DNA from: a virus | Lineage: Duplodnaviria > Caudoviricetes | Reading direction: 5' to 3' (one strand) | Length of the DNA: 64,000 nucleotides | IMG/VR virus record: IMGVR_UViG_3300031998_000024 | Span: 59,872 to 123,871 of that record | In this document: in pieces, positions 3,063-57,722 of the stretch | How positions within the stretch are numbered: position 1 is the first letter of the stretch | How the letters are laid out: every line of letters begins with the position of its first letter | Notes under the pieces: generated by a model | Seen by the model: the letters and a program-made list of their open reading frames with translations, nothing else | Database searches by the model: none | What the model was told of the DNA's origin: nothing | Made by a program: the position numbers and the translations under genes

Positions 3063-3752
3063 ATGAAGAAAAGTAATAAAGAAAAAAGTTATCTGATTAT
3101 CCAGCCTCATTCTGACGATGCTTTGTTTAGCGTTGGTCATCTTGTTCTTTCAGAACATAATGTTTCAATTCTTACTGTTGAGAATAATGCTAAAAGAATA
3201 AGTGAGGATGAAAAACTTTATCAGTTTATCGGAAAAAATTGGAATCATTTAGATGTAGATTTTGATGACCAATCTTTCTATGAGTTTTATAAACATAATA
3301 AGGATTTGAACGAAAGTAATGGACATGATTTCATGATTTCTTATTTTGGCGAAGAAAAGATGTCTAAAATAAAGAATGCTGTAAATAAGTTTGTTGAAAA
3401 ATTTGTTTCTCAAAATGAAGATAGTATTATTTATTTGCCTTGGGGTATTGGACATCCGTTTCATCTATTTATCAGAATTTGCGTTGAAAGAAAGTTTGCG
3501 AATAAAGATGGTGTGAGATTGCGTTTTTATCGTGATTTTCCGCATTCATATAAGCGTAGAGCGCAAGCGCAGGTCGCTGAACAACTTCATGATTTTGTAT
3601 TGTATAAAAGTTATGATGTTAAGGATTTTGCCGATATTAAATGGGAATTGGCTAAAAAGTTCTATAAGAGTCAAAGTGGTTTGCTTTGGTTTGAACAAGG
3701 ATATATCAAAAAGAATTTACCTGAAGAAGTGTATGTGAGAAAACCGAGTTAA
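3063..3752 (+). CDS. PIG-L/LmbE-family N-acetyl-sugar deacetylase
   Basis: IIQPHSDDA (PHxDD), PWGIGHPFH (HxxH), FYRDFPHS. Confidence 0.8.
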   Translation: MKKSNKEKSYLIIQPHSDDALFSVGHLVLSEHNVSILTVENNAKRISEDEKLYQFIGKNWNHLDVDFDDQSFYEFYKHNKDLNESNGHDFMISYFGEEKMSKIKNAVNKFVEKFVSQNEDSIIYLPWGIGHPFHLFIRICVERKFANKDGVRLRFYRDFPHSYKRRAQAQVAEQLHDFVLYKSYDVKDFADIKWELAKKFYKSQSGLLWFEQGYIKKNLPEEVYVRKPS

Positions 3753-3753
3753 T

Positions 3754-5199
3754 ATGAAAATTTTAATATCATCATTTACGATAGCAAAACAAGGTGGGAT
3801 AGTTCAATATATCCATTCGATGATTCAAGCCTTTAAGGAATTGGGTCATGATATAGATATTGTTGAACTTGCTCCTAATCGTATTACAGAAAGTGCATAC
3901 AAGAGTAAGTTTGAATCCATAAAGAGTGGGGAATATCAACGCAAGATAGTTCCCCATTCTCAGTCAGGAGGTTACTGCTTTGATGAATCAAGCGGTTATT
4001 TTTTCAACACTTATTACGGATATTTTTTGCCACCGAGTAATAAAATTTGCGTATTTGATTCTGATGCTGTGGAGCGTTGGTATAAACTTGTTTCAGATGT
4101 AGATATTATTCTTTGGAATTTTATGCCAACTAAAACCCGTGAATGGCAAAAGAAGGGTACAAAATTTGATTATTGGTGGAAGTTTTTTGATTTACCTAAA
4201 TCTGTTAAGCAGGTTTTTCTTACTCACGATGCTTATTTTAATATAAGAGCAAGTAATGTAACTGCATTGAAAAAGAAAATTTTGTTTCTTGGTTGCGCTC
4301 ATTTAGCCGCTTATCAATGTTGTTCTGAAATTGGTATAAGAAGAACATTGTTGTTGAATCCAAGATATATAGAGAAAAACGCAAGTATGCCTGTTGTTTC
4401 TTTTAATGACAGAAAAACAGATTTCTTTGCTGCTCATATGTTTAAGCCTATGAAACATATGGAAGAGTTAATTGCCGCTATTCCGTATGTTAATAAGGGT
4501 GATGAAACTTATTCTTGTATGGTTGCTGGAACTGGCATAGAGTATTCTTACATGACCAGTGAAGATAAAATAAAACCATGTTATTTATGCAGTAAGAAGC
4601 GTGACCCTAATTTACCAGATAAACTTGATGGTAAAATTAGTTTATGGAATAGAGCCTTAACATTTGGTATGGATTATAGAGGTCAAATGAGCGGTGACGA
4701 TGTTTATAAACAATTATTGAATACTAAATTTGCTATTGACCCATCTTGGGCAACTCACTATGCTCAATATTGTCGTACTCATATAAACGGCTTTATCATT
4801 GAGGCTATGATGTTAGGTGCTTATCCTGTGTTAAGGGATTACAGAGGATTAGATAAAGCAAATAGCAATGTTTATGACCCATTGTTTGAGAGTATTAATG
4901 CTGTAATAATTCCGTGGGATGCTACACCTAAACAATTTGCTAAAATTTTGAAATCCGCTATTGCTGATATGACACCAAAGCGTTTTTTGAGAGAAACGAA
5001 AGAAAATTTCCAAATAGTAAACGAATTATTTAATGCTCGTAAAAATGCCGAAGAAATAATTAGATTATGTCGCGGAGGTAAACGATTAGTCAAGGCAGAA
5101 TTGGAAAAAGGTGTTGATTCAGATAATGTGAAGAAAATATCCGAAGATATTATGACAAATTTCTTTGGAATTGAATTACCAATCAAATGGCAGAATTAG
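3754..5199 (+). CDS. GT-B fold glycosyltransferase
   Basis: MKILI..GGIVQY..AFKELGHDIDIV; FKPMKHMEELI; AIDPS..GFIIEAMMLGAYPV. Confidence 0.8.
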   Translation: MKILISSFTIAKQGGIVQYIHSMIQAFKELGHDIDIVELAPNRITESAYKSKFESIKSGEYQRKIVPHSQSGGYCFDESSGYFFNTYYGYFLPPSNKICVFDSDAVERWYKLVSDVDIILWNFMPTKTREWQKKGTKFDYWWKFFDLPKSVKQVFLTHDAYFNIRASNVTALKKKILFLGCAHLAAYQCCSEIGIRRTLLLNPRYIEKNASMPVVSFNDRKTDFFAAHMFKPMKHMEELIAAIPYVNKGDETYSCMVAGTGIEYSYMTSEDKIKPCYLCSKKRDPNLPDKLDGKISLWNRALTFGMDYRGQMSGDDVYKQLLNTKFAIDPSWATHYAQYCRTHINGFIIEAMMLGAYPVLRDYRGLDKANSNVYDPLFESINAVIIPWDATPKQFAKILKSAIADMTPKRFLRETKENFQIVNELFNARKNAEEIIRLCRGGKRLVKAELEKGVDSDNVKKISEDIMTNFFGIELPIKWQN

Positions 5200-5258: not shown

Positions 5259-7538
5259 ATGACAAAAACAACCAAACAAGTAAAAGTTGGTGATGTTAAG
5301 ACCGTAAACGATGTGGAATACATTTGTAAGGGTTTTACATCTAATGGTAAACCAATGTGGCGTAAGAATGAAATTGAAAAGGCTCATAATGTTGGTGATG
5401 CACACCCGTCAAAACCTTGGGTGTGGACAGAATATAAGCCTGGAAAATTTGATTGGCGCCCTGTGAAGAAAAAAGATGGTGATGCCGGCAAGACTGGTGG
5501 AGCCGCTACATCTACTCAACAGCAACAACCTAAATCGCAAAATCAAGGACAAACTCAACCTTCTACTGACGGTGCTAAGAAGAGTGGAAAACAAACCGCT
5601 CAACAGCAACAGCCTAAGAAAATTGATAAGAAGGTTGAAGATATGACACCCGATGAATTAGCTGAATACGCTAAGGATGCTTCAACTGAGGCTTTGGCTA
5701 AGGTTGTTAATGACAAAAACCAAGACAAGGGATTTCGTCAATTAGCGTTCAATGAATTGAAAAAGCGTGATGATTATGACCCTGAGTCGGTTTTTAGTGA
5801 AGATTTGGAAGATGGATTTTTCCCGATTCGTAAACCCACTATTGAATACAAGAAAAAGAAGCCTGAAATTCCAGTAAATAGTTATCAGATTAAGGATTAT
5901 GAAACTCAAAGCAATACTGGAAGAATTAAGGTAGGTATCAATAAAACTCGTGCTAATTACAGAAATCGTACTGATGACCAAATACTTGGTACTTTGAATG
6001 ATGTTCGTGCCAGGTATCAACTTCGTCAACTTGCTTATGAAGAAGCAATGGCGCGTGGTATTCCTGAAGATAAAATTAATGTTCGTGGTACACTTGAATC
6101 TTTTTGGAAGGATGTTGCTTATGAAAAGCAAATGCAGGATGCTAAGTCAAAGCCTCTGAATCCTGAAGAGGGTGCTGAATTGGTGTACGATTGGAAGGGA
6201 TTGGACCATGAAGCAATTATGCACGATGAATTTGATGATGGTGAAGACCCGATATGGCTTGACGACAATTCAGACAAGGTTAAGAGAATATTTCATACCG
6301 ATACTTTGTCAGGTCGTCAACGCTATGATACATTTAAGGATTATTATCAAAGAAATCCTGACCTTGTTCCGTATTACCTTAATGCTACTCAAAAAGTTGA
6401 TATGCTTAATGGCGATATGTATGAGTGGGCAAAGAGCGATGTTTCACCCTTATTCGTATCAGCTGGTGGAGCAGGTGCTGGTAAGACCTATGGTTGGAAA
6501 GAGATTGTTGCTAAGCATTTGAATCTACCTGAATTAAAACCTGGTCAAGACCCGTCTAACGGAGATTGGGGTTATGTAATGCTTTCAAACGAGCAGGCTG
6601 AAGATAAGGAGAAATTCACAAGAACGCTTGCTAAATATAACGGAACATATATTGATTCCAATGGTAATGAGAAACCTCATATCTTAGTTTTCGATGATTC
6701 CGATAAATTGCTTATCACTAAATCAAAGGATTTGATTGCGTTGATGAAGAAAATCAACGATGGTGAACCAAGCAATCGAATATTTACCAATCCCGATACT
6801 GGTCAACAGGAAGTTTGGAGAGGTAAGATTATAATCATGACTAATAAGGATTCTGGTAAGTTGCAAGCAGGTAATGAAGATGTTACCGCAATCTTCAGTC
6901 GTGGTACTGTTAGCGATATTCGTTTCACCCGTAATGAAACAATGGAATTACTTGCTAACAGATATATGACTATGGCGTTACCTAAGTGTCAGAATACATT
7001 TGAAGAACAGAATTTCACCGATGAAGAGATTGAAGATTTCCGTCAGGATATTTACAATTATATGTCTAAACATATTGGTGATGCTGACCCTGCTAAATTC
7101 ACTCCAAGAGCGTTCTTGAATATTGCAGAACATGTTGCTCCAAGATGGAAGGGTTCAAAGGTGATTAGAACTGGTAAGGGTAACATAGGTGTAGATTTGC
7201 CGTGGCAAGTAACTGCTCTCAGTATCATTAAAGCCGAAAACAACGATATTGAAAAGGCTAATGAGGATAGCGAGTTTTCAAACGAAAACATGAAGAAAAC
7301 AAAAGAGCGTGTTTTGAAGCGTATAGAGCAAGCCAAGAAGGATGGTTCGTATGAAGCACTTTATGGTATGGAGGCTCAAAATGCTATGTTGTTTGGTGAC
7401 CCGCGTACTGAAGAAGAAAAGAAAAAGGATGAGAAAAAAGAAGCAAAGCAAGACAAGAAAAATAAGAAGGAGGAAACCAAGAAGGGGTTTGATGATGAAA
7501 TGAGTCTTGCTGAAGCTGAATCGCTTTTATTTGGTTAA
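5259..7538 (+). CDS. AAA+-type P-loop ATPase with N-terminal WTEYKPGKFDW module (putative virion cargo)
   Basis: Walker A GGAGAGKT, Walker B ILVFDDSD, sensor-1-like IIIMTN, FSRG. Confidence 0.7.
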   Translation: MTKTTKQVKVGDVKTVNDVEYICKGFTSNGKPMWRKNEIEKAHNVGDAHPSKPWVWTEYKPGKFDWRPVKKKDGDAGKTGGAATSTQQQQPKSQNQGQTQPSTDGAKKSGKQTAQQQQPKKIDKKVEDMTPDELAEYAKDASTEALAKVVNDKNQDKGFRQLAFNELKKRDDYDPESVFSEDLEDGFFPIRKPTIEYKKKKPEIPVNSYQIKDYETQSNTGRIKVGINKTRANYRNRTDDQILGTLNDVRARYQLRQLAYEEAMARGIPEDKINVRGTLESFWKDVAYEKQMQDAKSKPLNPEEGAELVYDWKGLDHEAIMHDEFDDGEDPIWLDDNSDKVKRIFHTDTLSGRQRYDTFKDYYQRNPDLVPYYLNATQKVDMLNGDMYEWAKSDVSPLFVSAGGAGAGKTYGWKEIVAKHLNLPELKPGQDPSNGDWGYVMLSNEQAEDKEKFTRTLAKYNGTYIDSNGNEKPHILVFDDSDKLLITKSKDLIALMKKINDGEPSNRIFTNPDTGQQEVWRGKIIIMTNKDSGKLQAGNEDVTAIFSRGTVSDIRFTRNETMELLANRYMTMALPKCQNTFEEQNFTDEEIEDFRQDIYNYMSKHIGDADPAKFTPRAFLNIAEHVAPRWKGSKVIRTGKGNIGVDLPWQVTALSIIKAENNDIEKANEDSEFSNENMKKTKERVLKRIEQAKKDGSYEALYGMEAQNAMLFGDPRTEEEKKKDEKKEAKQDKKNKKEETKKGFDDEMSLAEAESLLFG

Positions 7539-10550: not shown

Positions 10551-10988
10551 ATGTTAAATAGTACAACAATTAAGGTTATTACCGAAGGTCAAAAATTAGA
10601 GTATGCTACACCTCAAAGTAGCGGTATGGATTTAAGAGCAAACAACGATGAAACAATCATCTTAAAGGTAGGCGAAAGAAAATTGATACCAACTGGTATT
10701 AAAGTTCAATTAGCAGAAGGTACTGAAATGCAAATACGCAGTCGCAGCGGTTTGGCTTTGAAAAAGGGGATTATTGTTTGGAATGCTCCTGGGACTATTG
10801 ATGCTGATTATAGGGGTGAAGTTGGCGTAATCCTTTATAACGGAGGCGATGAAGATTTTGAAATCAATAAGGGTGATAGGATTGCTCAAGCAGTAGTTGT
10901 TCCATATCTTAAAGCATTTGTTAATTATGTTGACAAATTAGACGATACGCAAAGAGGTGAAGGTGGATTTGGACATACTGGAGTTTGA
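10551..10988 (+). CDS. dut: trimeric dUTPase
   Basis: SGMDLRA, RSRSGLA, GTIDADYRGE, GDRIAQ, RGEGGFGHTG. Confidence 0.97.
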   Translation: MLNSTTIKVITEGQKLEYATPQSSGMDLRANNDETIILKVGERKLIPTGIKVQLAEGTEMQIRSRSGLALKKGIIVWNAPGTIDADYRGEVGVILYNGGDEDFEINKGDRIAQAVVVPYLKAFVNYVDKLDDTQRGEGGFGHTGV

Positions 10989-21068: not shown

Positions 21069-22277
21069 ATGATTGAAAAGAATTTAGAAGTTTTTGAGCC
21101 TGAAAATGGGTTTGTTCAAACAGAGAATTTTGCTAAACAGTATCCAAGAATTAACAATTTTATTCTCAATAACCAAGATGGTTGGGATGAAAGTCGTGAT
21201 GGTAAGGTTAGAGAAATTTTGGATTTCAAAACAACGCTGCTTAATCCTTATAAAAGGATGGTTGGTGGACAAAAAAGAAACATTAATGTGTTTTTTCTAC
21301 TTGCTGAAGCGATGTGGATTTTTGCGGGTCATAAGGATGTTTCGTTTCTCACAGCATTCAATAAAAAGATGGGCGATTTTTCGGATGACGGTAATGTATT
21401 CCACGCGCCATACGGATTCCGTTTGCGTCACTGGGGAGTTCGTTCTGAAGACAAATTCGTTGAAGAAAATATGCACATTGCTCAAGGGTATGACCAAATT
21501 TCTGATGCGGTAAAGATTTTTCAAAATAATCCTAATAGCCGTCAGGTTGTTCTTGCTATTTGGAATCCTGATTTTGACCTTGGTACTATTACTAAGGATA
21601 TTCCGTGCAACGATATTGTTATAATGAAAATCCGTAATGGTAAACTTTATACAACTGTTCAGAATCGTAGTAATGATTTACATTGGGGATTGCCTACTAA
21701 TATTTTCCAGTTTGGATTTTTGAGCGAGATTTTGGCTAATGTTCTTGGTGTTACTCTTGGAACGCAAACACATAATTCTCATAGCCTACATATTTATGAT
21801 TGGAATCAGATAGCGTTTACAATGCAATCTGAATACGAAAGCGGTAATCAAACAACGCTTTATGAAATTCCTAATATAGTCGCTATTCCAATGGATATTG
21901 ATTTCGATAATCAGATTGCTGGAAATAGATTGAGGGAGGTTGATATTATGATTGAAAGAATTATATCAAACCTTACCAAAATAATTAATGGCGTAGAGCC
22001 TAATGAAGAGGAGGTAGCAGATACGATTAGTAAGTCAAAATGGTTTACTTGCGTTTATAGGATGCTTGAAATTTATTTGAATTACAAAAAGGATATTGCT
22101 AAGGATTTCAGTGCTGAAGAAAAGAAGGATTGCGCTAAATTTGCCTTGGATTCTATTTACAGCGTTCTTATAAGTAAAGAAATGGAAAATTGGGATATTG
22201 GTACATTAGCGGTTAATTTCTTTGCTCATAGAATAGGCGATGAACCAAAACCAGAAATTTTAATTGGTAAGTTATGA
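21069..22277 (+). CDS. thymidylate-synthase homolog, probable dUMP hydroxymethylase
   Basis: ESRDG, NVFFLLAEAMWIFAG, FSDDG..APYGFR, KDIPCN, NRSNDLHWGLPTN, HSLHIY. Confidence 0.8.
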   Translation: MIEKNLEVFEPENGFVQTENFAKQYPRINNFILNNQDGWDESRDGKVREILDFKTTLLNPYKRMVGGQKRNINVFFLLAEAMWIFAGHKDVSFLTAFNKKMGDFSDDGNVFHAPYGFRLRHWGVRSEDKFVEENMHIAQGYDQISDAVKIFQNNPNSRQVVLAIWNPDFDLGTITKDIPCNDIVIMKIRNGKLYTTVQNRSNDLHWGLPTNIFQFGFLSEILANVLGVTLGTQTHNSHSLHIYDWNQIAFTMQSEYESGNQTTLYEIPNIVAIPMDIDFDNQIAGNRLREVDIMIERIISNLTKIINGVEPNEEEVADTISKSKWFTCVYRMLEIYLNYKKDIAKDFSAEEKKDCAKFALDSIYSVLISKEMENWDIGTLAVNFFAHRIGDEPKPEILIGKL

Positions 22278-23950
22278 TTGACGAAAATCTCAGAAATTGG
22301 GTTTCAGATAACAAAATGATAATATCGGAGTCATCGCAAGGCGATTCCGATATTATTTTGATTGATGGTGTAGGTAAGTTTCTTTATATACATCCATTTG
22401 GCGGTAATATTATTGATGAAGATTTCGGGTTTATAATGTCGGATGAAGAATTTGAATTATGCGACAATAAACAGGTTGATTATATACTATTTGAATTTGG
22501 TGGTAAGTTTTATTATTCACCGCTGAAAGAAGATAGGAGTAAGTACAACGAAATAATTTATAAACCTGAATTCAATGATTTCAAATATCTTGGTAAGTGT
22601 TCTGAAGATTTAGTTATGCCGTTTGTTCATCTTGGTGTTCACGATGAGTATGAGATGATGAATGGTAGCGGTAATGCTAAATTATGGGCTCAAAAGGCTG
22701 CTTTTTTAGGATATAAGGCTTTGGGACTTTCTGATTGTAATACCTTAGCAGGAACACTTGCGTTTCAGGAGGCTTGCGATAAATATAAATTACAACCAGT
22801 TATTGGTGAAACCGTAATTGTTGCTAAAAATTATAATCCCGATAGTTCGGTGATGCCTGAAACATTTGAATTGAAGTTATTCGTTACTAATGATGTCGGT
22901 TGGAAAAATCTTTTATTTATTAGCAAGGAAATAAATGTGAAATACAAGGGTTTTATTCCCGATGAAATACTTTTCCAATACGCTGATGGATTAGTGGCAG
23001 TAATACCACCCGCAAGTCTTTTTAACAACATTAGTAGTGATATAGATTCTACTAATAAATTGATAAAGTTGTATAAGAAACATTTTGTCGATTTATATTA
23101 TCAAATTGATACAGTTGAATACAATTCTAAAACGCTTTTCAAGAAACATCTTTCAGCAATAGATAGATATTTATGCAATTATCGTAAAAAGATAAAGCCG
23201 ATTGTTATTAATGATTCTTATTATCTTGATGCGGAAGAACATGAATTAAAATCTATGTTGAATAAAATTACTGGTAAGGTTAATGCTGAATCTGAAGACC
23301 AGTATTTCAAAAGCGTTGGAGATACGCTTGCTTCATATGACGATTGGTTTGATGATGTAGAGCCTTTATTTGATGCTATTATTGTCGGTATAGAAAACAC
23401 AAATAAATTAGCAGAACAATGTAATTTCCGTATCAACAATTCAGATAGAAAAATCCCTAAGTTTGAAGTTGATGACCCTGAAGCGTTTTTCTTTGATGTT
23501 CTTCAAAAGGGTATAAATGACAAGTTAGTTGGCAAGATTCCTGAAAAGGATATGGAGCAATATATGAAAAGAATAGAGTTTGAATGTTCAATCATTGTTC
23601 CTAATGATTTGTGTTCATATTTACTTATTCTTTGGGATATTATTCAGTGGTGTAAATCTGAGGGATATATGGTTGGTCCAGGTCGTGGTTCTGTTTGTGG
23701 TTCGTTAGTAGCGTATTGTATGGACATTACTCAAGTTGACCCTATTCCGAATGGTTTGTATTTTGAAAGATTTTTGAATATTGCTCGTATAGCAGCACAC
23801 CATAGTTATACATTAACAATGGAAGATGGTTCTGAGTATAAGTTTAATGATGGTGACCGTGTTCCGATAGTTGGCGGAGGTTTTGTTGAAGTTTCTAAGG
23901 AAACGAATTGGGATGATTTAGATATTGATGTTAAGGCAATAGTTTTATAA
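22274..23950 (+). CDS. dnaE: DNA polymerase III alpha, N-terminal half (PHP + start of palm)
   Basis: FVHLGVHDEY, NDSYY, GPGRGSVCGSLVAY, LYFERFLN. Confidence 0.95.
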   Translation: MIDENLRNWVSDNKMIISESSQGDSDIILIDGVGKFLYIHPFGGNIIDEDFGFIMSDEEFELCDNKQVDYILFEFGGKFYYSPLKEDRSKYNEIIYKPEFNDFKYLGKCSEDLVMPFVHLGVHDEYEMMNGSGNAKLWAQKAAFLGYKALGLSDCNTLAGTLAFQEACDKYKLQPVIGETVIVAKNYNPDSSVMPETFELKLFVTNDVGWKNLLFISKEINVKYKGFIPDEILFQYADGLVAVIPPASLFNNISSDIDSTNKLIKLYKKHFVDLYYQIDTVEYNSKTLFKKHLSAIDRYLCNYRKKIKPIVINDSYYLDAEEHELKSMLNKITGKVNAESEDQYFKSVGDTLASYDDWFDDVEPLFDAIIVGIENTNKLAEQCNFRINNSDRKIPKFEVDDPEAFFFDVLQKGINDKLVGKIPEKDMEQYMKRIEFECSIIVPNDLCSYLLILWDIIQWCKSEGYMVGPGRGSVCGSLVAYCMDITQVDPIPNGLYFERFLNIARIAAHHSYTLTMEDGSEYKFNDGDRVPIVGGGFVEVSKETNWDDLDIDVKAIVL

Positions 23951-23961
23951 ACATATTTATC

Positions 23962-24693
23962 ATGAATTTTACTTGTTTTAATATGGAGTGGGAGCCTACC
24001 ATGGAAGGTGGTAGGTTAATACACACAAAACAACCTTGGATGTGGTATGACGCAAGTCAAATTTGGGTTAGTGAAAATGAAATGAAGTTATGGGTTGAGA
24101 AGAAACCTAATACAATACATCATTGGGATGGTAAAACATATAATCCGAAAATTGCGGTTGGAATAGCGAGGTCTGTGAAAACATTCCTTCGCGGTAACTT
24201 TTCAGCAGAAATAATGATGCCAAGCGGTAAAAATCTATGGCCATCGTTTTGGTTAGTTGGAGCAGATAAAGATTGGCCATTATGCGGTGAAATAGATATT
24301 GTAGAATCATGGAGTAATCGTTGCAGTAGTTATTTTAGATTCACTATTCCACAGCCTCCGTATTTAGTGCCATCGTGGAAAACTACTACAAATGTGCATT
24401 GGTCTGAGAATGGTGAATATAAATATACTGGTTCACGGAGTTTGCCGTTAATATTTTCTTTGAAGAATCCAAGTAATACATTTGTTAAATACGAATTGAT
24501 TTGGGAATCGGATAGAATTTTGTTTTTAGTTGATGGTAAAACAATTCGTTGTTATGGTTATGATGTAGCGAAACATTTGAGTAATTCACTGCAGAGAGTT
24601 ATTTTCAATAATTGGGTTCAAGGTGAAGATTGTTCGTTAAAACAACCAATGATTATACGGAATTTTAAATATGAACCATTAGTATGTATTTGA
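23962..24693 (+). CDS. glycoside hydrolase family 16
   Basis: LWPSFWLVG..WPLCGEIDIVE (ExDxxE), YELIW..ILFLVDG. Confidence 0.85.
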   Translation: MNFTCFNMEWEPTMEGGRLIHTKQPWMWYDASQIWVSENEMKLWVEKKPNTIHHWDGKTYNPKIAVGIARSVKTFLRGNFSAEIMMPSGKNLWPSFWLVGADKDWPLCGEIDIVESWSNRCSSYFRFTIPQPPYLVPSWKTTTNVHWSENGEYKYTGSRSLPLIFSLKNPSNTFVKYELIWESDRILFLVDGKTIRCYGYDVAKHLSNSLQRVIFNNWVQGEDCSLKQPMIIRNFKYEPLVCI

Positions 24694-24694
24694 T

Positions 24695-26776
24695 ATGAAA
24701 GTTAGGTCTGTAAAGGTTAAAAAATTCTATCAAGATACACCCGATATAGATGTCGATTTTGAGCCAGTTGCTCGTGACGCTGTGAAGGATTATATTGTTC
24801 GCAAATACGGAAGTGCTTGGTCTTGTAGTGTATCTACTTACACACGTGTGAAGTTGAAAACCGCCATAAAGGATTTTGGTAAGGTTGAGGGATTGCCGTT
24901 TGATTTGACCAATAAGGTTACAAAGGATATTGATGACCAAATTGAATACACTTGGGGTGATTTAATAGAATTTGGTTCAAGGTCTAAAACGCTTTATAAA
25001 TTCATTCAGGAAAATCCTGAAATAATACATTTGACCAAATATGCTTTGATGATACCGAAGGCTGAAAGTATTCACCCTTCTGCTTATATAATAGTACCTA
25101 AACAAAATTCAGATGGAGAGAAAACCGATATTTTCAATCTAATGCCTATGAAGGAAATTGATGGGCTTTTAGTTTGTGAATGGGAGGGTAAGTACACTGA
25201 AAGTTCTTTGTTCTTGAAAGAGGATATTTTAGGACTATCTCAATTGACTAAGATACACAACATCATGAAGTTAATTGAGAAACATTATGGCACAAAAATA
25301 GATGTTACGCAAATTCCGTTTGACGACAAAGAGGTTTTTAAGTTCTTCAAAAGAGGATGGTGTGAAGATGTATTTCAGTTCGGAACAACTGGTTTGATGG
25401 GTTATTGTCGTCAGGTTAAACCAAGTCAATTATCGGATTTAATTGCTATGACCGCTTTATTCAGACCTGGTCCAATGGAGAGTAACGCTCATCAAGATTT
25501 TGCCGATATTAAGAATGGAAGGAAAAAACCTAAATACGATTATGGTATTCAAAATATAACAGAGGAAACATATTCACTTTTGGTGTACCAAGAGCAAATG
25601 ATGTCTATCATTCACCAGTTAGGAGGGTTATCGCTTATTGATGCTGAAAATGCGAGAAAATACATCAAGAAAAAGGCTCATAAGGAATTGAATGAGTTGG
25701 GTGATAGATTTATAGCAGGTGCTATTAGCAATGGATGTCCTGAAAAAGAGGCTAAGAAGATTTGGGATAAGATGAACGCTTTTAGTTCTTACAGTTTCAA
25801 TAAGAGTCATGCTGCTGCTTATAGTTATATTTCATATTGGTCAATGTGGTTTAAGGTTAATTATCCGCTTGAATTTTGGACTGTTTCTTTGAGCGAAAGT
25901 AAGGAAACTGAAATACCATATAGATTAGCTGAAATGAAAAAGGCTGGAGTTGAGGTTGAAGTAAGACCGCCTGATGTTAATTATTCAACCGATTATTTCA
26001 CTTGTGACCCCAAGGAGCAACGAATATTCTTCAGTTTGAATAAGATTAAGGGTGTTGGTGATGTAGCGGTTGCTTCATTATTGAAAGAGCGTAACGAACA
26101 TGGTCAGTTTTTTGATTTCGATGAGTTTCTTTCAAGAGTTCCTGGTAAGGTGAATAAGACTGTTATCAAGGGTTTGATAGTTGGCGGAGCGTTTGATTTA
26201 TTGTGTGATATAAAACAACCGCGTGATAGAAAGAAATTATTAGAGCGTTATTTGATTGATATCAAAAAAGATTCTGAACTACCTGAGCCGTATAATTCAC
26301 CCGATTCTTTGACTAATGCATTTTGGATTCAAGAGCAAAAGCGTTTGACTGGTTTTGGTGAAATTGATTACGAAAACTATATAAAGGATTTGATTCCAAA
26401 TAAGCGGTTTGTAAGTCTTTATGTAGATGAAAACGAATTTGAAAGAGTTCCTGAAAAGAAGGAGGTTGTACTGGCTGGTAAGTTTTTGTTTTATCGTGAA
26501 AGTAATACTAAGAATGGTGTTATGGGTACAATACAACTTGATTGTAATAATACCATTATTAATTGCACTATTTGGCCTGATATTTGGCAACTTTATAGGG
26601 AAGAAATTGAAGATTACAAGGGTAGGATAATAGCATTAAACGGATTCGCTCAGAAGGACAAGTTCAGAAATGAAAAGCGTTTATTTTCAAATGATAGAAC
26701 AAAAATTTATGTTATTAGTGAGAGTAAGACAGCGTTAAATAGATTACAAGAATGGCGTAATTCAAAAAAGATTTAA
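24695..26776 (+). CDS. dnaE: DNA polymerase III alpha, C-terminal half
   Basis: PDIDVDF, KEDILGL, VFQF, ALFRPGP, VYQEQ, FNKSHA, PPDVN, IKGVG, OB fold. Confidence 0.95.
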   Translation: MKVRSVKVKKFYQDTPDIDVDFEPVARDAVKDYIVRKYGSAWSCSVSTYTRVKLKTAIKDFGKVEGLPFDLTNKVTKDIDDQIEYTWGDLIEFGSRSKTLYKFIQENPEIIHLTKYALMIPKAESIHPSAYIIVPKQNSDGEKTDIFNLMPMKEIDGLLVCEWEGKYTESSLFLKEDILGLSQLTKIHNIMKLIEKHYGTKIDVTQIPFDDKEVFKFFKRGWCEDVFQFGTTGLMGYCRQVKPSQLSDLIAMTALFRPGPMESNAHQDFADIKNGRKKPKYDYGIQNITEETYSLLVYQEQMMSIIHQLGGLSLIDAENARKYIKKKAHKELNELGDRFIAGAISNGCPEKEAKKIWDKMNAFSSYSFNKSHAAAYSYISYWSMWFKVNYPLEFWTVSLSESKETEIPYRLAEMKKAGVEVEVRPPDVNYSTDYFTCDPKEQRIFFSLNKIKGVGDVAVASLLKERNEHGQFFDFDEFLSRVPGKVNKTVIKGLIVGGAFDLLCDIKQPRDRKKLLERYLIDIKKDSELPEPYNSPDSLTNAFWIQEQKRLTGFGEIDYENYIKDLIPNKRFVSLYVDENEFERVPEKKEVVLAGKFLFYRESNTKNGVMGTIQLDCNNTIINCTIWPDIWQLYREEIEDYKGRIIALNGFAQKDKFRNEKRLFSNDRTKIYVISESKTALNRLQEWRNSKKI

Positions 26777-26780
26777 TATT

Positions 26781-27434
26781 ATGATTGAAAAAATTGTAAA
26801 TGGTAGTTATCTAAAAAGGATTGATAACATTATTCAGTGGCAGGAGCGCGATGTGTTTAACAAAGAGAGTGTTTCTCAGCATTCGTACAAAGTGAGCGTT
26901 TTTGTTAGGATTTTATTGGAAGATATTTTCAATAATCCTGATTGTAGCAAGAATTTTGAAATTCAAAATTTCAAATTAGATTGCGTAACTCATGCGATGT
27001 TTCATGATTGGGATGAGGCGATTTTTATGCGTGATTTATCTCATGCAATTAAGTATAATGATTTCAACGGCAATCAAATTCGTCAGGTTATTGATGATTA
27101 TGTGAAACACGAATTTGTAAAAGAGTTCGATACCTATCAGGATACATGCGCTTATAAAGTGTTAGCACCAGCGGTAGTTTGTTTGAATCCTTGCGTTAAA
27201 AAGGTTGTTAAGTTAGGAGATTGGCTTGCTTTACTTTTTTATTGCAGAAGGGAAATAGCATTAGAAAATGCGAATTTTGAAAAAACATATATGTATTGCC
27301 GCCACAGTGTTATTAAAGCAGCGCAAGATGTTGTTGAAGTTATAGACCAAAGATTTGGTATTGATGCGAGTAATTTAATTGAAACTATACAAACAATTCT
27401 AAAAAGTTCTGTTTATGGAGAAAATGACTATTGA
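26781..27434 (+). CDS. HD-domain 5'-deoxynucleotidase (YfbR-like)
   Basis: ESVSQHSY, MFHDWDE..RDL, VVKLGD. Confidence 0.8.
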   Translation: MIEKIVNGSYLKRIDNIIQWQERDVFNKESVSQHSYKVSVFVRILLEDIFNNPDCSKNFEIQNFKLDCVTHAMFHDWDEAIFMRDLSHAIKYNDFNGNQIRQVIDDYVKHEFVKEFDTYQDTCAYKVLAPAVVCLNPCVKKVVKLGDWLALLFYCRREIALENANFEKTYMYCRHSVIKAAQDVVEVIDQRFGIDASNLIETIQTILKSSVYGENDY

Positions 27435-43211: not shown

Positions 43212-43286
43212 GTTCCTGTAGCGCAGTTCGGTTAGAGCAGCTGACTCATAATCAGCAGGTCGAAGGTTCAATCCCTTTCAGGAACA
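43212..43286 (+). tRNA. tRNA with CAT anticodon (probably Ile2, otherwise elongator Met)
   Basis: Acceptor GTTCCTG/CAGGAAC, anticodon arm GCTGA-CTCATAA-TCAGC, T loop TTCAATC; no encoded CCA. Confidence 0.92.
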
Positions 43287-43492
43287 CGAAACTGGTGGTG
43301 CACTCATTTCCGATTTCTTTCATAATCTTTATCGGTGTTATTGAGTGAAATGCCCAACCTTCTACTCACCACCAGTTAATTCCCAACGCTGAAATCGCAG
43401 TGTCCTTTGTCGGGATGGCCTCCGAAATATTGTGACGCTTGCACAGTTAGTTTAGTACTGGCGAAAGCCTTTATGAAGAGTTTGGGATGGTA

Positions 43493-43585
43493 GGGTGTGA
43501 TACACCGCGATTTTGGGCGGTGCTTTTTGATTCGTTAGTATCCATACGATAGAATTGTTAGTTGGTTCGATTCCAGCCTCACCCA
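43493..43585 (+). ncRNA. tRNA-like element without a canonical anticodon arm
   Basis: GGGTGTG/CTCACCC-A acceptor, GTTGG-TTCGATT-CCAGC T arm, 6-bp CACCGC/GCGGTG arm. Confidence 0.6.
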
Positions 43586-43587
43586 CA

Positions 43588-43860
43588 AGCAAAGTCCGTT
43601 GAGATATTAATGAGGACTTGTTGGACAAGGGTTCGATTCCCTTCACCTCCACGCTGGCGTGCGTAGCGTTAGTCACATTCGTCAATTCGGGGGAGAAATC
43701 CCCCAACCTTGGGGGTGACTGGTTTTGACAGCAAGTTAGTAGGTAATGTTGAGGAGTTTGTGGCCTATAAATGGCAAAAAAGTTTCTTTTGACCGCATGG
43801 TCAATCAGCGTCATGAAGCAAGAGTTTATGCTTGCGCAGCCTAATGGCTGAAAGATGCGG
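43588..43860 (+). ncRNA. ssrA: circularly permuted (two-piece) tmRNA
   Basis: Acceptor piece ..GGAC-AAGGG-TTCGATT-CCCTT-CACCTCC-A (ends 43651) lies before 5' GGGGGTGACTGGTTTTGAC (43711); G3:U70; tag frame 43773-43844 ends YACAA-TAA. Confidence 0.9.
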
Positions 43861-43861
43861 C

Positions 43862-43901
43862 AGGGAGGGTTTACGGTGTAAATGCCTCCTTGTTTCTTTT
43901 T
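43862..43901 (+). terminator. intrinsic terminator after tmRNA
   Basis: GGAGG-GTTTAC/GTAAAT-GCCTCC stem + T-rich tail. Confidence 0.7.
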
Positions 43902-43957
43902 ACACAGCAGGGTTTATAAATTCAAAAACTTATACTAACAAATTAAATCGTTACACT

Positions 43958-54647: not shown

Positions 54648-57600
54648 ATGCTTGGTGAATTAGAAACATACAAAAGAAGTCCGTTACACAAAGCAGAGTG
54701 TCTAAGAATTGTTGATGAGATTATAGACGGATTGGATGAGCGTGGTATCAACGAGATAATGGAAGGTACTGAGCTGGATATTGATAGAATGATTGATATA
54801 ATGCTTGAGGAAACCTTCTGTGTTATCTTTACTGGTCAGCGTGAAATAGACTTTGCTCCACACTATACAGAGCGTTTATCAGAGAGTATAGAAGAAACGC
54901 TAAGGGTAAATAATTTGACTTATTTCATTACAAGTGTTTTACCCGATTTTCAGTTTGGTTGGCATCATATTGAGTGGGGTGACTTAGTGATGCACTATAA
55001 GAAGTTGTGTGTTGAGGCTGCTCGTGGTCACGGAAAATCTTGGTATTTTAGCAACGCTTATATCATTTGGCAGTTGTATAGATATAAGAGGTCAAAGACG
55101 ATGCAATTCAGCATGAGACCAACGCGAAGCAATAGCAATCGTGGTTTTTTGTTTTCGTTTTCACTGCAACAAAGTGTTGACCTTATAGAGATTTTGAAGG
55201 GTACGATTGAAAGCAACGATACATTAGCAGAAAGACTAATGCCTCAAAATACCAAAGAGGGTGCTTGGGCGTCAACTAATATAACTTGTAGAAATGGAGC
55301 GCGTTTGACTGGTAAGGGTTTTGGTTCGTCTGTTCGTGGTGCTCACCCTTATTTTATTGTTGTTGATGACGGGTTAAAAGATAATGTAATTTATTCAAGC
55401 CTACAAAGACAAAAGAGCATTGATTATTTTCATTCGGTAATCATGAATATGATTATTCCTGGCGGGCAAACAATCGTTGTCGGTTGCGTTTCACCTTACA
55501 CTATTGTATTATCTGATAAAAGAGGTTTTATCAGAATGAGAAGTGTTAAGTATAATTACATAGAGGATAAGAAAAAAGTTGTAAAACACGTTGAAAAGTT
55601 TTTAGATAAGAATGGATTTTCTCAAACGTCGCATTATTTTTATAATGGCGTAGGAGACATGCTCAGAATCACTTTACAAGGCGGTTTTGAGTTAGAGTGC
55701 AGTAAAATACATCCGTTATGGAAGATGTTTGAAAACGGAATACCAGGCTGGCAAAAATCAGCTGAGTTGAAGATTGGTGATTATATCGCTATAAAACCAA
55801 CTGAAATTGAATCATTTGGAATGCCTGTTGAGCTAAAATCTTTTATAAGTTCTTATAAAAGGAAAAAGAATCGAAATTATAATGAGCAGAATTTGAAATT
55901 ACCATTATATTTAGATGAAGATTTGGCGTATTTTATTGGACTTTGGATTGCAGAAGGTACAATTTACAAAAATGGAAGTGGAATTGAAATGTCCACTGGC
56001 GATTCTGAGATTGAAGATTTTTTGAAATCTTTGATAAAATATAATATTAATTTTAGAGGAAATGGAAGATTTGATAAAAGTTATGCTTATTCGTGTACGA
56101 ATAAGAGATTACATGCGTTTTTCATTTGGTTGGGTTTTGATTGCCCTTGTTATTGTAATATAAAGAATATTCCCGATAAATTATTATCAGCGCCAAAGAA
56201 TATTTTAAAACAAATAATTTCAGGAATATTTGATGGCGATGGACATGTAGATGAAAGTGATGGTAAAATAGGAGTTGTATTATCATCTACATCCCTTGGT
56301 TTAATTAAAACAGTGCAAAATGTTTTATTAATGGGATGGGGGATAATTTCAACTTATAGTTATGTAAAAGCGGAAAGTATTAATGCAAGCGGAAAGAATA
56401 ACACTCACGTTAATTATGACCAATACAGTTTGGTTATAATAGGTCATAATGCGATTAAATTCGGTAAGGAAATCGGATTTAAATTAAGTAGAAAGCAATT
56501 GCGCATTGAAAAGCATTTCAGCGACAAATTTAATCTTAACAATTCTAATTTTTATAATATTCCTCATCAAGCTGGTCTGTATAAAAATGCTGAAAATAAA
56601 CGTTTAGCAAATAAAATAACGTATAGAGATAAAGAGGGGTATGGGAATTTTATAGATTCTGCTTATTCTATTAAAAAAGCTAAAACTATAAATAAATTCG
56701 TATTGAAAAAGGTTTGCGAATTTATGAAAAAGATAACAAATAGCAATGATTATGACCAATTGCTTAAAAATTGTGAAGAAGATGTTATTTGGAGGAGAAT
56801 TGTTAAAATTGAAAAATTTCAAGGAAGTTCTTGCGATTTTGTAATTCCGTCAACGCATTCTTTTATAACCAACGGAATTGTTTCGCATAACACACCATTT
56901 CACGCTCAAGACCTTTATGGAGATTTGAAAACCAAGAAGGGGTGGTTTGTAATAGAATATCCTGCTATATTTCCTGATGGAAGGATTCTTTGGCCTCAAA
57001 GATTCTCATATCAAACGCTTATGGATATGCGTAACACGCAGGGAAATATCATATTTAGCCGTGAAAATCTTTGCCGCCCAATTGTGTCAGATGCTTCTAT
57101 ATTCTCCTTTGATATTTTACGCAACAGCCTTATACGCATGGAAATTTATTGCTTAGTGCGTAGTAGGGATGATTTTCCGAAAAAGTTTGATAAGGTTGTT
57201 GTTGGAGCCGACTTTGCTATATCATCTGCCGTTGGAGCCGACTATTATTGCTATACTGTGTTTGGCGTTGGAGAGGATGGCGGAATGTGGTTGCTTTGGA
57301 TAGAGATTGGTAAGGGGCGAAAGTATGATGAGCAGTTGCAGATTCTAAGAGGAATCAATGCGCGTTTTAGACCTGATGTAATGGTGTTTGAAGCGAATGT
57401 ATTCCAACAGATATTTTCAGATGGCGCGCAAGATTATGGAATGCCTGTTGTTTCGCATACAACGGGTACGGAGAAAAATGACTTATCAAAAGGTTGGGTT
57501 GCATTAGCAACGATGTTTGAAAGAGGAATGTTCCACATACCAGTTGGCGATGATTATAGTCAAAGAATAAAGGATATGATTTTTGACCAGTTAGGTTCAG

Positions 57601-57722
57601 TTGCATTTACTGACCATGGTTTACAGTCGGTTGGTTCGCACGATGATATTTGTAGTAGTATGTGGCTTGCTACTTTGGGTAGGAATTTGCAACGCACTGG
57701 CAGTAAATTTATGTTTTTGTAG
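54648..57722 (+). CDS. terL: terminase large subunit (intein-containing)
   Basis: AARGHGKS, VRGAHP..VVDD, VG|TP, GADFA, FEANVFQ, HDDIC. Confidence 0.92.
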   Translation: MLGELETYKRSPLHKAECLRIVDEIIDGLDERGINEIMEGTELDIDRMIDIMLEETFCVIFTGQREIDFAPHYTERLSESIEETLRVNNLTYFITSVLPDFQFGWHHIEWGDLVMHYKKLCVEAARGHGKSWYFSNAYIIWQLYRYKRSKTMQFSMRPTRSNSNRGFLFSFSLQQSVDLIEILKGTIESNDTLAERLMPQNTKEGAWASTNITCRNGARLTGKGFGSSVRGAHPYFIVVDDGLKDNVIYSSLQRQKSIDYFHSVIMNMIIPGGQTIVVGCVSPYTIVLSDKRGFIRMRSVKYNYIEDKKKVVKHVEKFLDKNGFSQTSHYFYNGVGDMLRITLQGGFELECSKIHPLWKMFENGIPGWQKSAELKIGDYIAIKPTEIESFGMPVELKSFISSYKRKKNRNYNEQNLKLPLYLDEDLAYFIGLWIAEGTIYKNGSGIEMSTGDSEIEDFLKSLIKYNINFRGNGRFDKSYAYSCTNKRLHAFFIWLGFDCPCYCNIKNIPDKLLSAPKNILKQIISGIFDGDGHVDESDGKIGVVLSSTSLGLIKTVQNVLLMGWGIISTYSYVKAESINASGKNNTHVNYDQYSLVIIGHNAIKFGKEIGFKLSRKQLRIEKHFSDKFNLNNSNFYNIPHQAGLYKNAENKRLANKITYRDKEGYGNFIDSAYSIKKAKTINKFVLKKVCEFMKKITNSNDYDQLLKNCEEDVIWRRIVKIEKFQGSSCDFVIPSTHSFITNGIVSHNTPFHAQDLYGDLKTKKGWFVIEYPAIFPDGRILWPQRFSYQTLMDMRNTQGNIIFSRENLCRPIVSDASIFSFDILRNSLIRMEIYCLVRSRDDFPKKFDKVVVGADFAISSAVGADYYCYTVFGVGEDGGMWLLWIEIGKGRKYDEQLQILRGINARFRPDVMVFEANVFQQIFSDGAQDYGMPVVSHTTGTEKNDLSKGWVALATMFERGMFHIPVGDDYSQRIKDMIFDQLGSVAFTDHGLQSVGSHDDICSSMWLATLGRNLQRTGSKFMFL
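55485..56891 (+). mobile_element. intein with LAGLIDADG homing endonuclease (469 aa)
   Basis: G|CVSPYT start, CSKIHP block B, FIGLWIAEG and ISGIFDGDG, GIVSHN|T end. Confidence 0.95.

Follow-up and report, generated by a model that had tools for sequence, protein, structure and literature searches.

What does a phage gain from a de-N-acetylase and a glycosyltransferase encoded side by side? The pair that raises this question occupies positions 3063 to 5199 of a stretch of 64,000 nucleotides (hereafter the window), which is the second half (positions 59872-123871) of the complete 123,871-bp viral record IMGVR_UViG_3300031998_000024. The record has direct terminal repeats at its ends and carries nearly all of its genes on the + strand; bovine gut metagenome runs contain the stretch and may be the source of this 124-kb phage. 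We propose, with somewhat better than even confidence, that the pair decorates 5-hydroxymethyluracil (hmU) in DNA with an amino sugar, the glycosyltransferase (GT) transferring an N-acetylhexosamine (HexNAc) to hmU and the deacetylase then removing its N-acetyl group. We favor this reading mainly because relatives of the GT are repeatedly fused or adjacent to thymidine-hypermodification genes. The two open reading frames (ORFs) adjoin with a gap of 1 nt, as the original prediction for this locus had described:

3063..3752, + strand: predicted LmbE/PIG-L-fold metal-dependent de-N-acetylase P0001, 229 aa (fold, motifs)
3754..5199, + strand: predicted retaining-type GT-B glycosyltransferase P0002, 481 aa (fold, clade context)

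We use P0001 and P0002 as working names for the deacetylase and the GT, P0241 for a PF18723 protein, and P0242 for a 759-aa AAA+ protein; L-numbers (L004, L070, and so on) denote the individual contigs or loci compared. PF18723 is the "5-hmdU DNA kinase helical" domain, abbreviated HMUDK_hel, and is the same as aGPT-Pplase1 (clade 1).

The GT belongs to a small clade, represented by 207 cluster representatives in an exhaustive profile search of 1.84 billion proteins, that does not merge with the large GT4 family. We examined the gene contexts of 12 further representatives, picked by rank and not by context, which together with the phage's own gives 13 lineages (50%-identity clusters). HMUDK_hel is encoded within 12 kb of the GT in 8 of the 13, fused in one, directly adjacent in five, and at 4-12 kb in two. 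The original prediction had suggested following the co-occurrence of the three genes across phages: a thymidylate synthase (TS)-like gene lies near the GT in five lineages and an LmbE-type deacetylase directly adjoins it in three, and most lineages lack the deacetylase. Given that thymidine-hypermodification genes are estimated to occur in about one phage per 2000 (PMC8989533), the linkage of the GT to HMUDK_hel and TS-like genes is far beyond chance. As judged from gene arrangement, a link between the GT clade and hmU-DNA hypermodification is thus well supported, and the earlier claim that the pair acts on hmU DNA is strengthened by the fusion or adjacency of GT-clade genes to HMUDK_hel, TS-like, and LmbE genes in unrelated phage lineages.

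The fused form, P0268 (829 aa; L079:1954-4443 and L080:17-2506), is a natural GT-HMUDK_hel fusion found on two independent contigs. P0002 aligns to its residues 9-424 (31% identity, E 4e-46) and P0241 to its residues 509-762 (26% identity, E 2e-23). A TS-like gene follows P0268, a TagD-like cytidylyltransferase gene and a weak APH-like match precede it, and the donor in this lineage may be other than a simple UDP-sugar. A search for longer (fused) GT forms at 899-2565 aa, a range above the 829 aa of P0268, returned none. Unfused, the same genes stand in compact rows. On a Tara Oceans scaffold (L082/L083) the order is UvrD, HMUDK_hel, GT, TS, PDDEXK, and PolA, with overlapping stops and starts, and in L088 UvrD, HMUDK_hel, GT, TS, a YfbR-like gene, and DUF3310 are consecutive, with PolA and DCD/dUTPase beyond; this last row consists of the same genes that are dispersed in the cattle-gut phage. 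An AAA_28/Tmk-like kinase gene precedes overlapping HMUDK_hel and GT genes in L077, and the GT is followed by HMUDK_hel in L073/L074 (profile E 2.8e-55, for a sequence outside the profile's training set). In L086 the deacetylase, GT, and HMUDK_hel genes are consecutive, and the 243-aa deacetylase is a true P0001 homolog (hhalign probability 99.6%, E 7.7e-25, 29% identity) that keeps PHSDD. A radical S-adenosylmethionine (SAM)/SPASM gene lies directly upstream of the GT in L075 and L084, and in L075 a UDG-fused PolA, the polymerase type of YerA41, Carin-5, and SP-15, is encoded downstream. In L081 the upstream neighbor of the GT encodes neither HMUDK_hel nor a deacetylase.

One further locus (L070-72; L070:1-13104), in an unrelated metagenomic phage, is a dense 13-kb DNA-modification cluster. 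It begins with NT5C, GT, a Pfam-recognized PIG-L, a TS-like gene, a 283-aa gene, AAA_28, and a T4 EndoIV-like gene, and continues with a dNMP-kinase-like gene, HMUDK_hel, a sugar nucleotidyltransferase (with a weak APH-like match), a 113-aa gene, TAGT, and dUTPase_2. This cluster probably makes a more complex, doubly glycosylated base. Its PIG-L was considered as a P0001 homolog and rejected, as direct tests reveal similarity in the catalytic motifs only; it is a separately diverged LmbE enzyme.

These contexts bear on a different target for the pair, namely virion proteins, which some mycobacteriophages glycosylate, or host wall polymers, as for TarM/TarP, with no role in DNA. The placement of the pair in the phage, after portal and head-associated genes and beside an InPase-domain polyvalent-type protein, would suit such a target, as would the presence of TarM and SdgB among the top structural neighbors of the GT. 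In other lineages, however, the operons that contain the GT serve replication and nucleotide metabolism, not virion structure; there the GT adjoins or is fused to HMUDK_hel and TS-like genes, and a P0001-type deacetylase travels with it (L086). We therefore regard a protein or envelope target as very improbable, including the glycosylation of capsid proteins that the original prediction had offered as its alternative. Its remark that the pair lies among virion genes is accurate for the upstream side, with portal and head-associated genes, but not for the downstream side, where the AAA+ protein, an 834-aa protein without an assigned family, the dUTPase, and replication genes are encoded.

The enzymatic assignments rest largely on predicted structures, since default Pfam and PHROG scans gave no match for P0001 or P0002. 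P0001 is clearly predicted to be an LmbE/PIG-L-type deacetylase (CAZy CE14). Its AlphaFold2 (AF2) model (predicted local distance difference test score, pLDDT, of 93.5) has the LmbE-type Rossmann-like alpha/beta fold, and its best structural match is the teicoplanin deacetylase Orf2* (2x9l; Z 18.0, root-mean-square deviation [rmsd] 3.3 A, 199 residues), followed by Dbv21, BshB, diacetylchitobiose deacetylase, and MshB. In all, 22 LmbE entries score at Z 12.7-18.0 and the next fold reaches only Z 9.1; Foldseek connects the model to LmbE-type enzymes at E 3.3e-8. All of the closest structural neighbors are de-N-acetylases of N-acetylglucosamine (GlcNAc) conjugates, although the LmbE fold in this comparison also includes a hydratase, GalB. 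In LmbE enzymes the (A/P)HxDD motif provides the zinc-ligand His and Asp together with the catalytic Asp, and the HPDH/HxxH motif holds the third zinc ligand. The first corresponds in P0001 to an N-terminal PHSDD (residues 15-19), which aligns with the start of the Pfam model and with AAHFDDE of the L070 PIG-L, and the second probably to GHPFH (residues 130-134), which aligns in sequence with HPDHEF of the same protein and in which both His are invariant in the family. PHSDD and GHPxH are invariant in 39 P0001 homologs, which together with the Z 18.0 match to the LmbE family bears out the PIG-L deacetylase first proposed for this gene; the more distant L086 homolog has Asn in place of the first His of HxxH. 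A P0001 profile search of PDB sequences returned nothing relevant.

P0002 is clearly predicted to be a retaining-type GT-B glycosyltransferase. Its AF2 model (pLDDT 87.9) has the GT-B fold that the original prediction had assigned, with the phage T4 alpha-glucosyltransferase (AGT) and TarM tied at Z 23.0 as best structural matches. AGT superposes at Z 22.7-23.0 over 344-348 of 380-401 residues (rmsd 3.6-3.9 A; structure-based identity 10-13%), an AGT-like fold, but the tie with TarM makes the match non-specific. In a Foldseek comparison, which had been suggested against T4 AGT and BGT, the top match is likewise the DNA-bound T4 alpha-glucosyltransferase (E 8.9e-12). SdgB is also high among the structural neighbors, and PimA, HepE, BshA, and MshA come next, all of them retaining enzymes; the nearest viral models outside the family include annotated DNA alpha-glucosyltransferases and two GTs of phage SP-15. 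At the sequence level, a profile of 34 P0002 homologs finds no AGT chain in the PDB at E<=1, a relaxed-threshold Pfam search touches GT4 and GT1 at E~0.04, and a few family GTs have precomputed matches to PF13439 or PF00534. An alignment of diverse GTs offers no conserved stretch from which a search pattern could be drawn. A candidate EX7E site, read from the sequence, has its second Glu at E350 in EAMMLGAYPV, which is invariant in the family, and Thr342 rather than Glu eight residues before it. The isoelectric points of the GT (8.9) and the deacetylase (8.4) are compatible with DNA binding and do not discriminate among targets.

GlcNAc transfer by a GT4-type enzyme followed by de-N-acetylation by an LmbE-type enzyme is a familiar sequence of reactions, found in MshA/MshB (mycothiol), BshA/BshB (bacillithiol), PIG-A/PIG-L (glycosylphosphatidylinositol anchor), and teicoplanin GtfA/Orf2*. 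These systems share both their two-step logic and their two folds with the phage pair, which is encoded side by side, and BshA, MshA, BshB, MshB, Orf2*, and Dbv21 are among its top structural neighbors. Their acceptors are small molecules, lipids, or a glycopeptide, whereas the genomic linkage of the phage pair points to a DNA base. Because this logic is known and the close neighbors of P0001 are all GlcNAc-conjugate de-N-acetylases, we infer a HexNAc donor. It is also conceivable that the GT-B enzyme transfers glucose, the sugar of T4 DNA and base J, or, like TagF, a phospho-alcohol, and that the LmbE-fold protein cleaves a different amide or ester. The prevalence of GT-clade lineages without a deacetylase and the hydratase activity within the LmbE fold (GalB) are consistent with such chemistry, as are the donor-type genes of L079 (TagD-like cytidylyltransferase and APH-like) and L070 (sugar nucleotidyltransferase with a weak APH-like match), which indicate that donors probably differ between lineages. 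For the cattle-gut phage itself we consider another donor quite improbable: the structural neighbors closest to P0001 speak for an N-acetyl substrate, TagF-type enzymes are not among the GT structural neighbors listed, and no donor-synthesis gene was detected in the genome, which favors an abundant host UDP-sugar such as uridine diphosphate (UDP)-GlcNAc.

An hmU-specific pathway requires a supply of the modified base, for which three genes of the window are candidates:

21069..22277, + strand: predicted dUMP hydroxymethylase-like thymidylate-synthase homolog, 402 aa (PF00303, E 6.5e-25)
10551..10988, + strand: dUTPase (PF00692, E 6.7e-32; phrog_135, E 1.3e-56)
26781..27434, + strand: YfbR-like HD 5'-deoxynucleotidase (PF12917, E 4.6e-17)

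The best phage matches of the first product are the dUMP hydroxymethylases of SPO1 (gp29), SP8, and SP-10 (~44% identity, ~165 bits), and the best true thymidylate synthase in the PDB scores only 75 bits. The catalytic Cys (DIPCN) and the dUMP-type Asn (LPTNI) both align. By homology this gene is dUMP hydroxymethylase-like, as the original prediction had proposed, and would supply hmU to the pathway. The dUTPase presumably supplies dUMP and keeps dUTP out of DNA, and the YfbR-like enzyme is a candidate dTMP-excluding nucleotidase. Comparable genes recur around the GT elsewhere: dUTPase or DCD genes are present in the L070 and L088 clusters, the YfbR-like gene directly follows HMUDK_hel-GT-TS in L088, and an NT5C nucleotidase gene precedes the GT in L070.

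Two further genes lie outside the window:

L004:11783-12913 (genome 51783-52913): standalone PF18723 protein P0241 (E 4.6e-46)
L085:3093-4085 (genome 19092-20084): radical-SAM + SPASM enzyme (homology E 1.4e-26)

The first is located 10 kb upstream of the pair, just beyond the window edge. P0241 scores 157.9 bits against a cut-off of 25 and is accordingly an aGPT-Pplase-family protein; its counterpart in SP-10 gp186 is the C-terminal half (residues 297-597), the N-terminal half of that protein being a P-loop kinase with Walker A at residue 40. SP-10 gp186 has been experimentally shown to be a 5-hmdU DNA kinase, and its C-terminal half is listed as aG/PT-PPlase1 (Lee 2018 Table 3, PMC5889632). 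Standalone homologs of P0241 are found in ViI-like and SP10-like phages (gp160 in ViI), and in other phages the PF18723 domain is fused either to the GT clade or to an hmU-DNA kinase. P0241 is 71-74% identical among divergent relatives and is more conserved than the GT, and its Cys347-Glu348 is invariant in P0241 and distant homologs. This pair is noteworthy given that a conserved Cys and a neighboring Glu are essential in clade-2 aGPT-Pplases, in which the nucleophiles are primary amines or hydroxyls (PMC8989533).

A kinase partner for P0241 was sought in the complete genome. The N-terminal kinase of SP-10 gp186 and the small kinases of L070 and L077 have no tblastn or phmmer match there, and PF13521, PF13671, and PF02223 are absent, although a very divergent kinase could escape such searches. 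The complete genome likewise yielded no TAGT or sugar-nucleotide (donor-synthesis) gene, and no clade-2 transferase or PLP decarboxylase was detected in it. P0242, the only unexplained Walker A protein of the genome, was considered as an hmU-DNA kinase and rejected, because it shows no resemblance to SP-10 gp186 and the Atlas clusters closest to it are viral AAA+ ATPases. The statement of the original prediction that no hmU-DNA kinase is visible in the window is correct, and no P-loop kinase was detected in the whole genome either, but a PF18723 gene lies just upstream of the window. Its further step, from the missing kinase to direct glycosylation, agrees with our failure to find a P-loop kinase but was argued without P0241, whose Cys-Glu pair may itself make the bond to the base. 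That no kinase, TAGT, or sugar-nucleotide gene was detected fits the direct use of a host UDP-sugar.

P0241 makes a second route to a modified base worth weighing. The GT and the deacetylase could build a free-amine sugar compound, for which BshA/BshB making GlcN-malate is a model, or act on a group that the base already carries, and the Cys-Glu pair of P0241 would form the bond to the C5-methylene of hmU; the product would be an N-linked or linker-bridged base and not an O-glycoside of hmU. The retention of Cys347-Glu348 in P0241 and its distant homologs, akin to the clade-2 aGPT-Pplase pair (PMC8989533), is in keeping with this route, as are BshA and MshA among the structural neighbors of the GT and the fact that the deacetylase would create exactly such a primary amine. 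The encoded radical-SAM/SPASM enzyme, which is homologous to the GT-neighbor enzymes of the other lineages and has counterparts in M6 and SP10, adds to this side; it may represent a further tailoring step. It is kept in 4/5 complete relatives, however, and the one that has lost it keeps all of the other genes. The known transferases of the superfamily, moreover, need phosphorylated hmU, and the missing kinase argues against the canonical P0241-bond route, not against a variant of it. The P0268 fusion of a GT with a DNA-base-binding domain is simpler to understand if the GT itself works on DNA, and the annotated DNA alpha-glucosyltransferases among the nearest non-family viral neighbors of the GT point the same way. 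On balance we judge the amine-nucleophile route unlikely, though with a real chance of being correct.

For direct glycosylation of hmU, the reading we prefer, the substrates, the order of the steps, and the product are predicted as follows. The SPO1-gp29-like enzyme (21069-22277) would make 5-hydroxymethyl-dUMP, the dUTPase and 5'-deoxynucleotidase would bias the nucleotide pools, and hmU would replace T in phage DNA. After replication, the GT-B enzyme would attach an N-acetylhexosamine to the 5-hydroxymethyl group of hmU in DNA, the simplest candidate being GlcNAc drawn from the UDP-GlcNAc of the host; since the close structural neighbors of the GT are all retaining enzymes, an alpha linkage is probable. 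The GT would cooperate with P0241, whose probable task is to recognize the hmU base or flip it. The LmbE-type zinc deacetylase (3063-3752) would then strip the N-acetyl group to give hexosaminyl-oxymethyl-uracil, whose amine would be free and largely protonated in the major groove. Such a cationic base would shield the DNA from host nucleases and neutralize charge for packaging, roles likewise ascribed to the amines of putrescinyl-T, 5-NeOmdU, and 5-NedU, which are known thymidine hypermodifications.

Several observations weigh against this scheme. The pair lies between head-associated genes, 10-16 kb from the other pathway genes. The invariant Cys-Glu suggests that P0241 is catalytic rather than a mere recognition module, and its relatives in known pathways need phosphorylated hmU, for which no kinase was detected here. 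The fold of P0002 leaves the acceptor undecided, as AGT shares the top score with TarM and PimA scores only slightly lower, and P0002 falls below the Pfam GT4 thresholds (PF00534/PF13439 at 14.1 and 14.3 bits vs 26.4 and 28.5). P0001 falls below the Pfam PIG-L (PF02585) threshold (13.5 bits vs 28.2, E=0.1, residues 11-51 only), and its HPDH motif reads HPFH, with Phe for Asp. The context sample is small (13 lineages), and three members are uninformative owing to short contigs or unrecognized neighbors; two (L075 and L084) have radical-SAM/SPASM neighbors instead. Finally, because most GT-clade lineages are without a deacetylase, the sugar need not be N-acetylated generally.

Comparison with known systems helps to define what the proposed pathway would add. 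Glucosylation of hydroxymethylcytosine (hmC) in T4 DNA and base J are already known. T4 AGT (GT72) is, like P0002, a GT-B enzyme (~346 residues superposed, ~88% of AGT), and as a phage enzyme that acts post-replicatively on a 5-hydroxymethylpyrimidine in DNA it has the role predicted for P0002. Unlike P0002, it uses UDP-glucose on hmC and has neither a deacetylase nor an aGPT-Pplase partner; P0002 also exceeds it in length by 80-100 aa and has additional hairpins in the N domain and a helical tail at the C terminus. In base J (beta-D-glucosyl-hydroxymethyluracil) of kinetoplastids the sugar is O-linked to hmU, as in the predicted product. Its makers, however, are JBP, which oxidizes T, and a GT-A-type JGT; it carries beta-linked glucose and is rare and regulatory, whereas in the phage hmU would come from the nucleotide pool and receive an amino sugar from a retaining GT-B enzyme.

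The hypermodification systems of SP10, PhiW-14, ViI, M6, and PaMx11 share with the phage a dUMP hydroxymethylase and an aGPT-Pplase-family protein, as well as post-replicative tailoring to a free amine, which is predicted here; a radical-SAM enzyme is encoded here too. They use a 5-HMUDK kinase and aGPT-Pplase/AADT enzymes (Lee et al. 2018, 2021), none of which was detected in the cattle-gut phage beyond P0241, and the GT-B enzyme takes the position of the kinase as the fusion or neighbor partner of PF18723. The bases of SP-15, YerA41, and Carin-5 carry a hydroxypentyl linker, phosphate, and oligosaccharides, unlike the predicted hexosaminyl-hmU, and these phages use UDG-PolA where the cattle-gut phage has a split DnaE. 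A GT block that includes a deacetylase lies beside the polymerase in Carin-5 (PMC12686479), but that deacetylase is labeled a polysaccharide deacetylase, not LmbE. In HTVC023P-type pelagiphages, genes for TS, aG/PT-PPlase1, 5'-deoxynucleotidase, and a putative glucosyltransferase have been reported near PolA (PMC9599517), an arrangement that resembles L082 and L088, although the likeness is one of gene arrangement only; the report is a gene-content remark that does not define a clade or describe a fusion, a deacetylase, or a chemistry. TAGT-type and GT-A/GT-B glycosylation of 5hmC has been described in TET phages (bioRxiv 10.1101/2023.12.21.572611), and arabinosyl-hydroxycytosine is known (PMC13326640).

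The original prediction did not know the product base to be described, and in the literature that could be searched (which did not include Iyer et al. 2013) we found no description of hexosaminyl-hmU, of the GT clade, of its PF18723 fusion, or of the LmbE pairing. Fragments in the thymidine hypermodification of YerA41, however, differ by 162, 161, and 203 Da (PMC9023294), of which the differences of 161 Da (the size of a hexosamine) and 203 Da (that of a HexNAc) are a partial precedent for amino sugars on phage thymidine. We tentatively posit, at a little less than even confidence, a kinase-independent branch of thymidine hypermodification in which the GT-B clade replaces the kinase as the partner of aGPT-Pplase1 and, together with an LmbE deacetylase, makes alpha-hexosaminyl-oxymethyl-uracil in 100-124-kb gut phages. 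If direct glycosylation is correct, the product would be a new DNA base, an amino sugar on hmU and thus an amino-sugar analogue of base J, and its makers would be a new enzyme set acting on polymer DNA, composed of an hmU-DNA-specific GT-B clade and the first LmbE-type deacetylase proposed for DNA. It would also provide the first functional clue to the clade-1 aGPT-Pplase domain, the role of which was left open by reconstitution studies, as a module whose partner is either a kinase or a glycosyltransferase. Hypermodification determines whether a phage's DNA can be read by restriction enzymes, CRISPR nucleases, and sequencing chemistries, and hypermodification systems have yielded tools such as the T4 glucosyltransferases for hmC mapping; an hmU-specific glycosyltransferase would be a practical tool to label hmU in genomes. 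The family is abundant in metagenomes, where its homologs number in the hundreds and its near-complete contigs of 50-124 kb in the dozens, and the modification could bias its recovery by standard library preparation.

Hundreds of homologs of both P0001 and P0002 exist in metagenomes, their contigs reaching ~124 kb, and a relative of the locus or the GT was sought without success by blastn and tblastn in 50,697 phage records. Across 64 IMG/VR loci of the family the gene order is fixed (portal, p635, InPase protein, deacetylase, GT, AAA+, p834), and the GT is about as conserved as the portal protein. In the family loci with upstream flank, the deacetylase gene is directly 5' of the GT or separated from it by one inserted gene: it starts 1.27-2.4 kb, and not ~0.67 kb, before the GT start in 11 relatives (L008, L021, L025, L028, L029, L030, L036, L049, L050, L060, and L063), which suggests an extra gene inserted within the pair. 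The pair, P0241, and the hydroxymethylase are universal within the family, and the latter two are present in 5/5 divergent complete relatives. Because family gene content is uniform, this co-occurrence is uninformative.

Some features of the window are observations in their own right. The 489-aa protein encoded at 1496-2965, whose C-terminal 140 residues form the InPase domain of polyvalent/virion-associated proteins (PF18823, E 3.4e-49), directly precedes the deacetylase in most family loci. Right after the GT, at 5259-7538, is the gene for the 759-aa P0242, which is syntenic family-wide but poorly conserved (27-53% identity) and has a "VGD...WTEYKPGKFDW" module at its N terminus, followed by a Q-rich linker, a viral AAA+ ATPase core whose Walker A is at residue 403, and a tail rich in K and E. 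The DnaE-type polymerase at 22274-26776 is encoded in two ORFs, the break falling inside the DNA_pol3_alpha NTPase domain (positions 2-99 of the Pfam model on one side, 99-260 on the other), and a 243-aa ORF between the halves (23962-24693) matches Glyco_hydro_16 (E 1.5e-13). A 1024-aa protein encoded at 54648-57722, with Walker A at residue 124, contains an intein (Intein_splicing) that bears a LAGLIDADG endonuclease. ARAGORN identifies a tRNA-Met at 43212-43287 and, at 43562-43935, a permuted tmRNA-like gene with a tag peptide that ends in ACAA.

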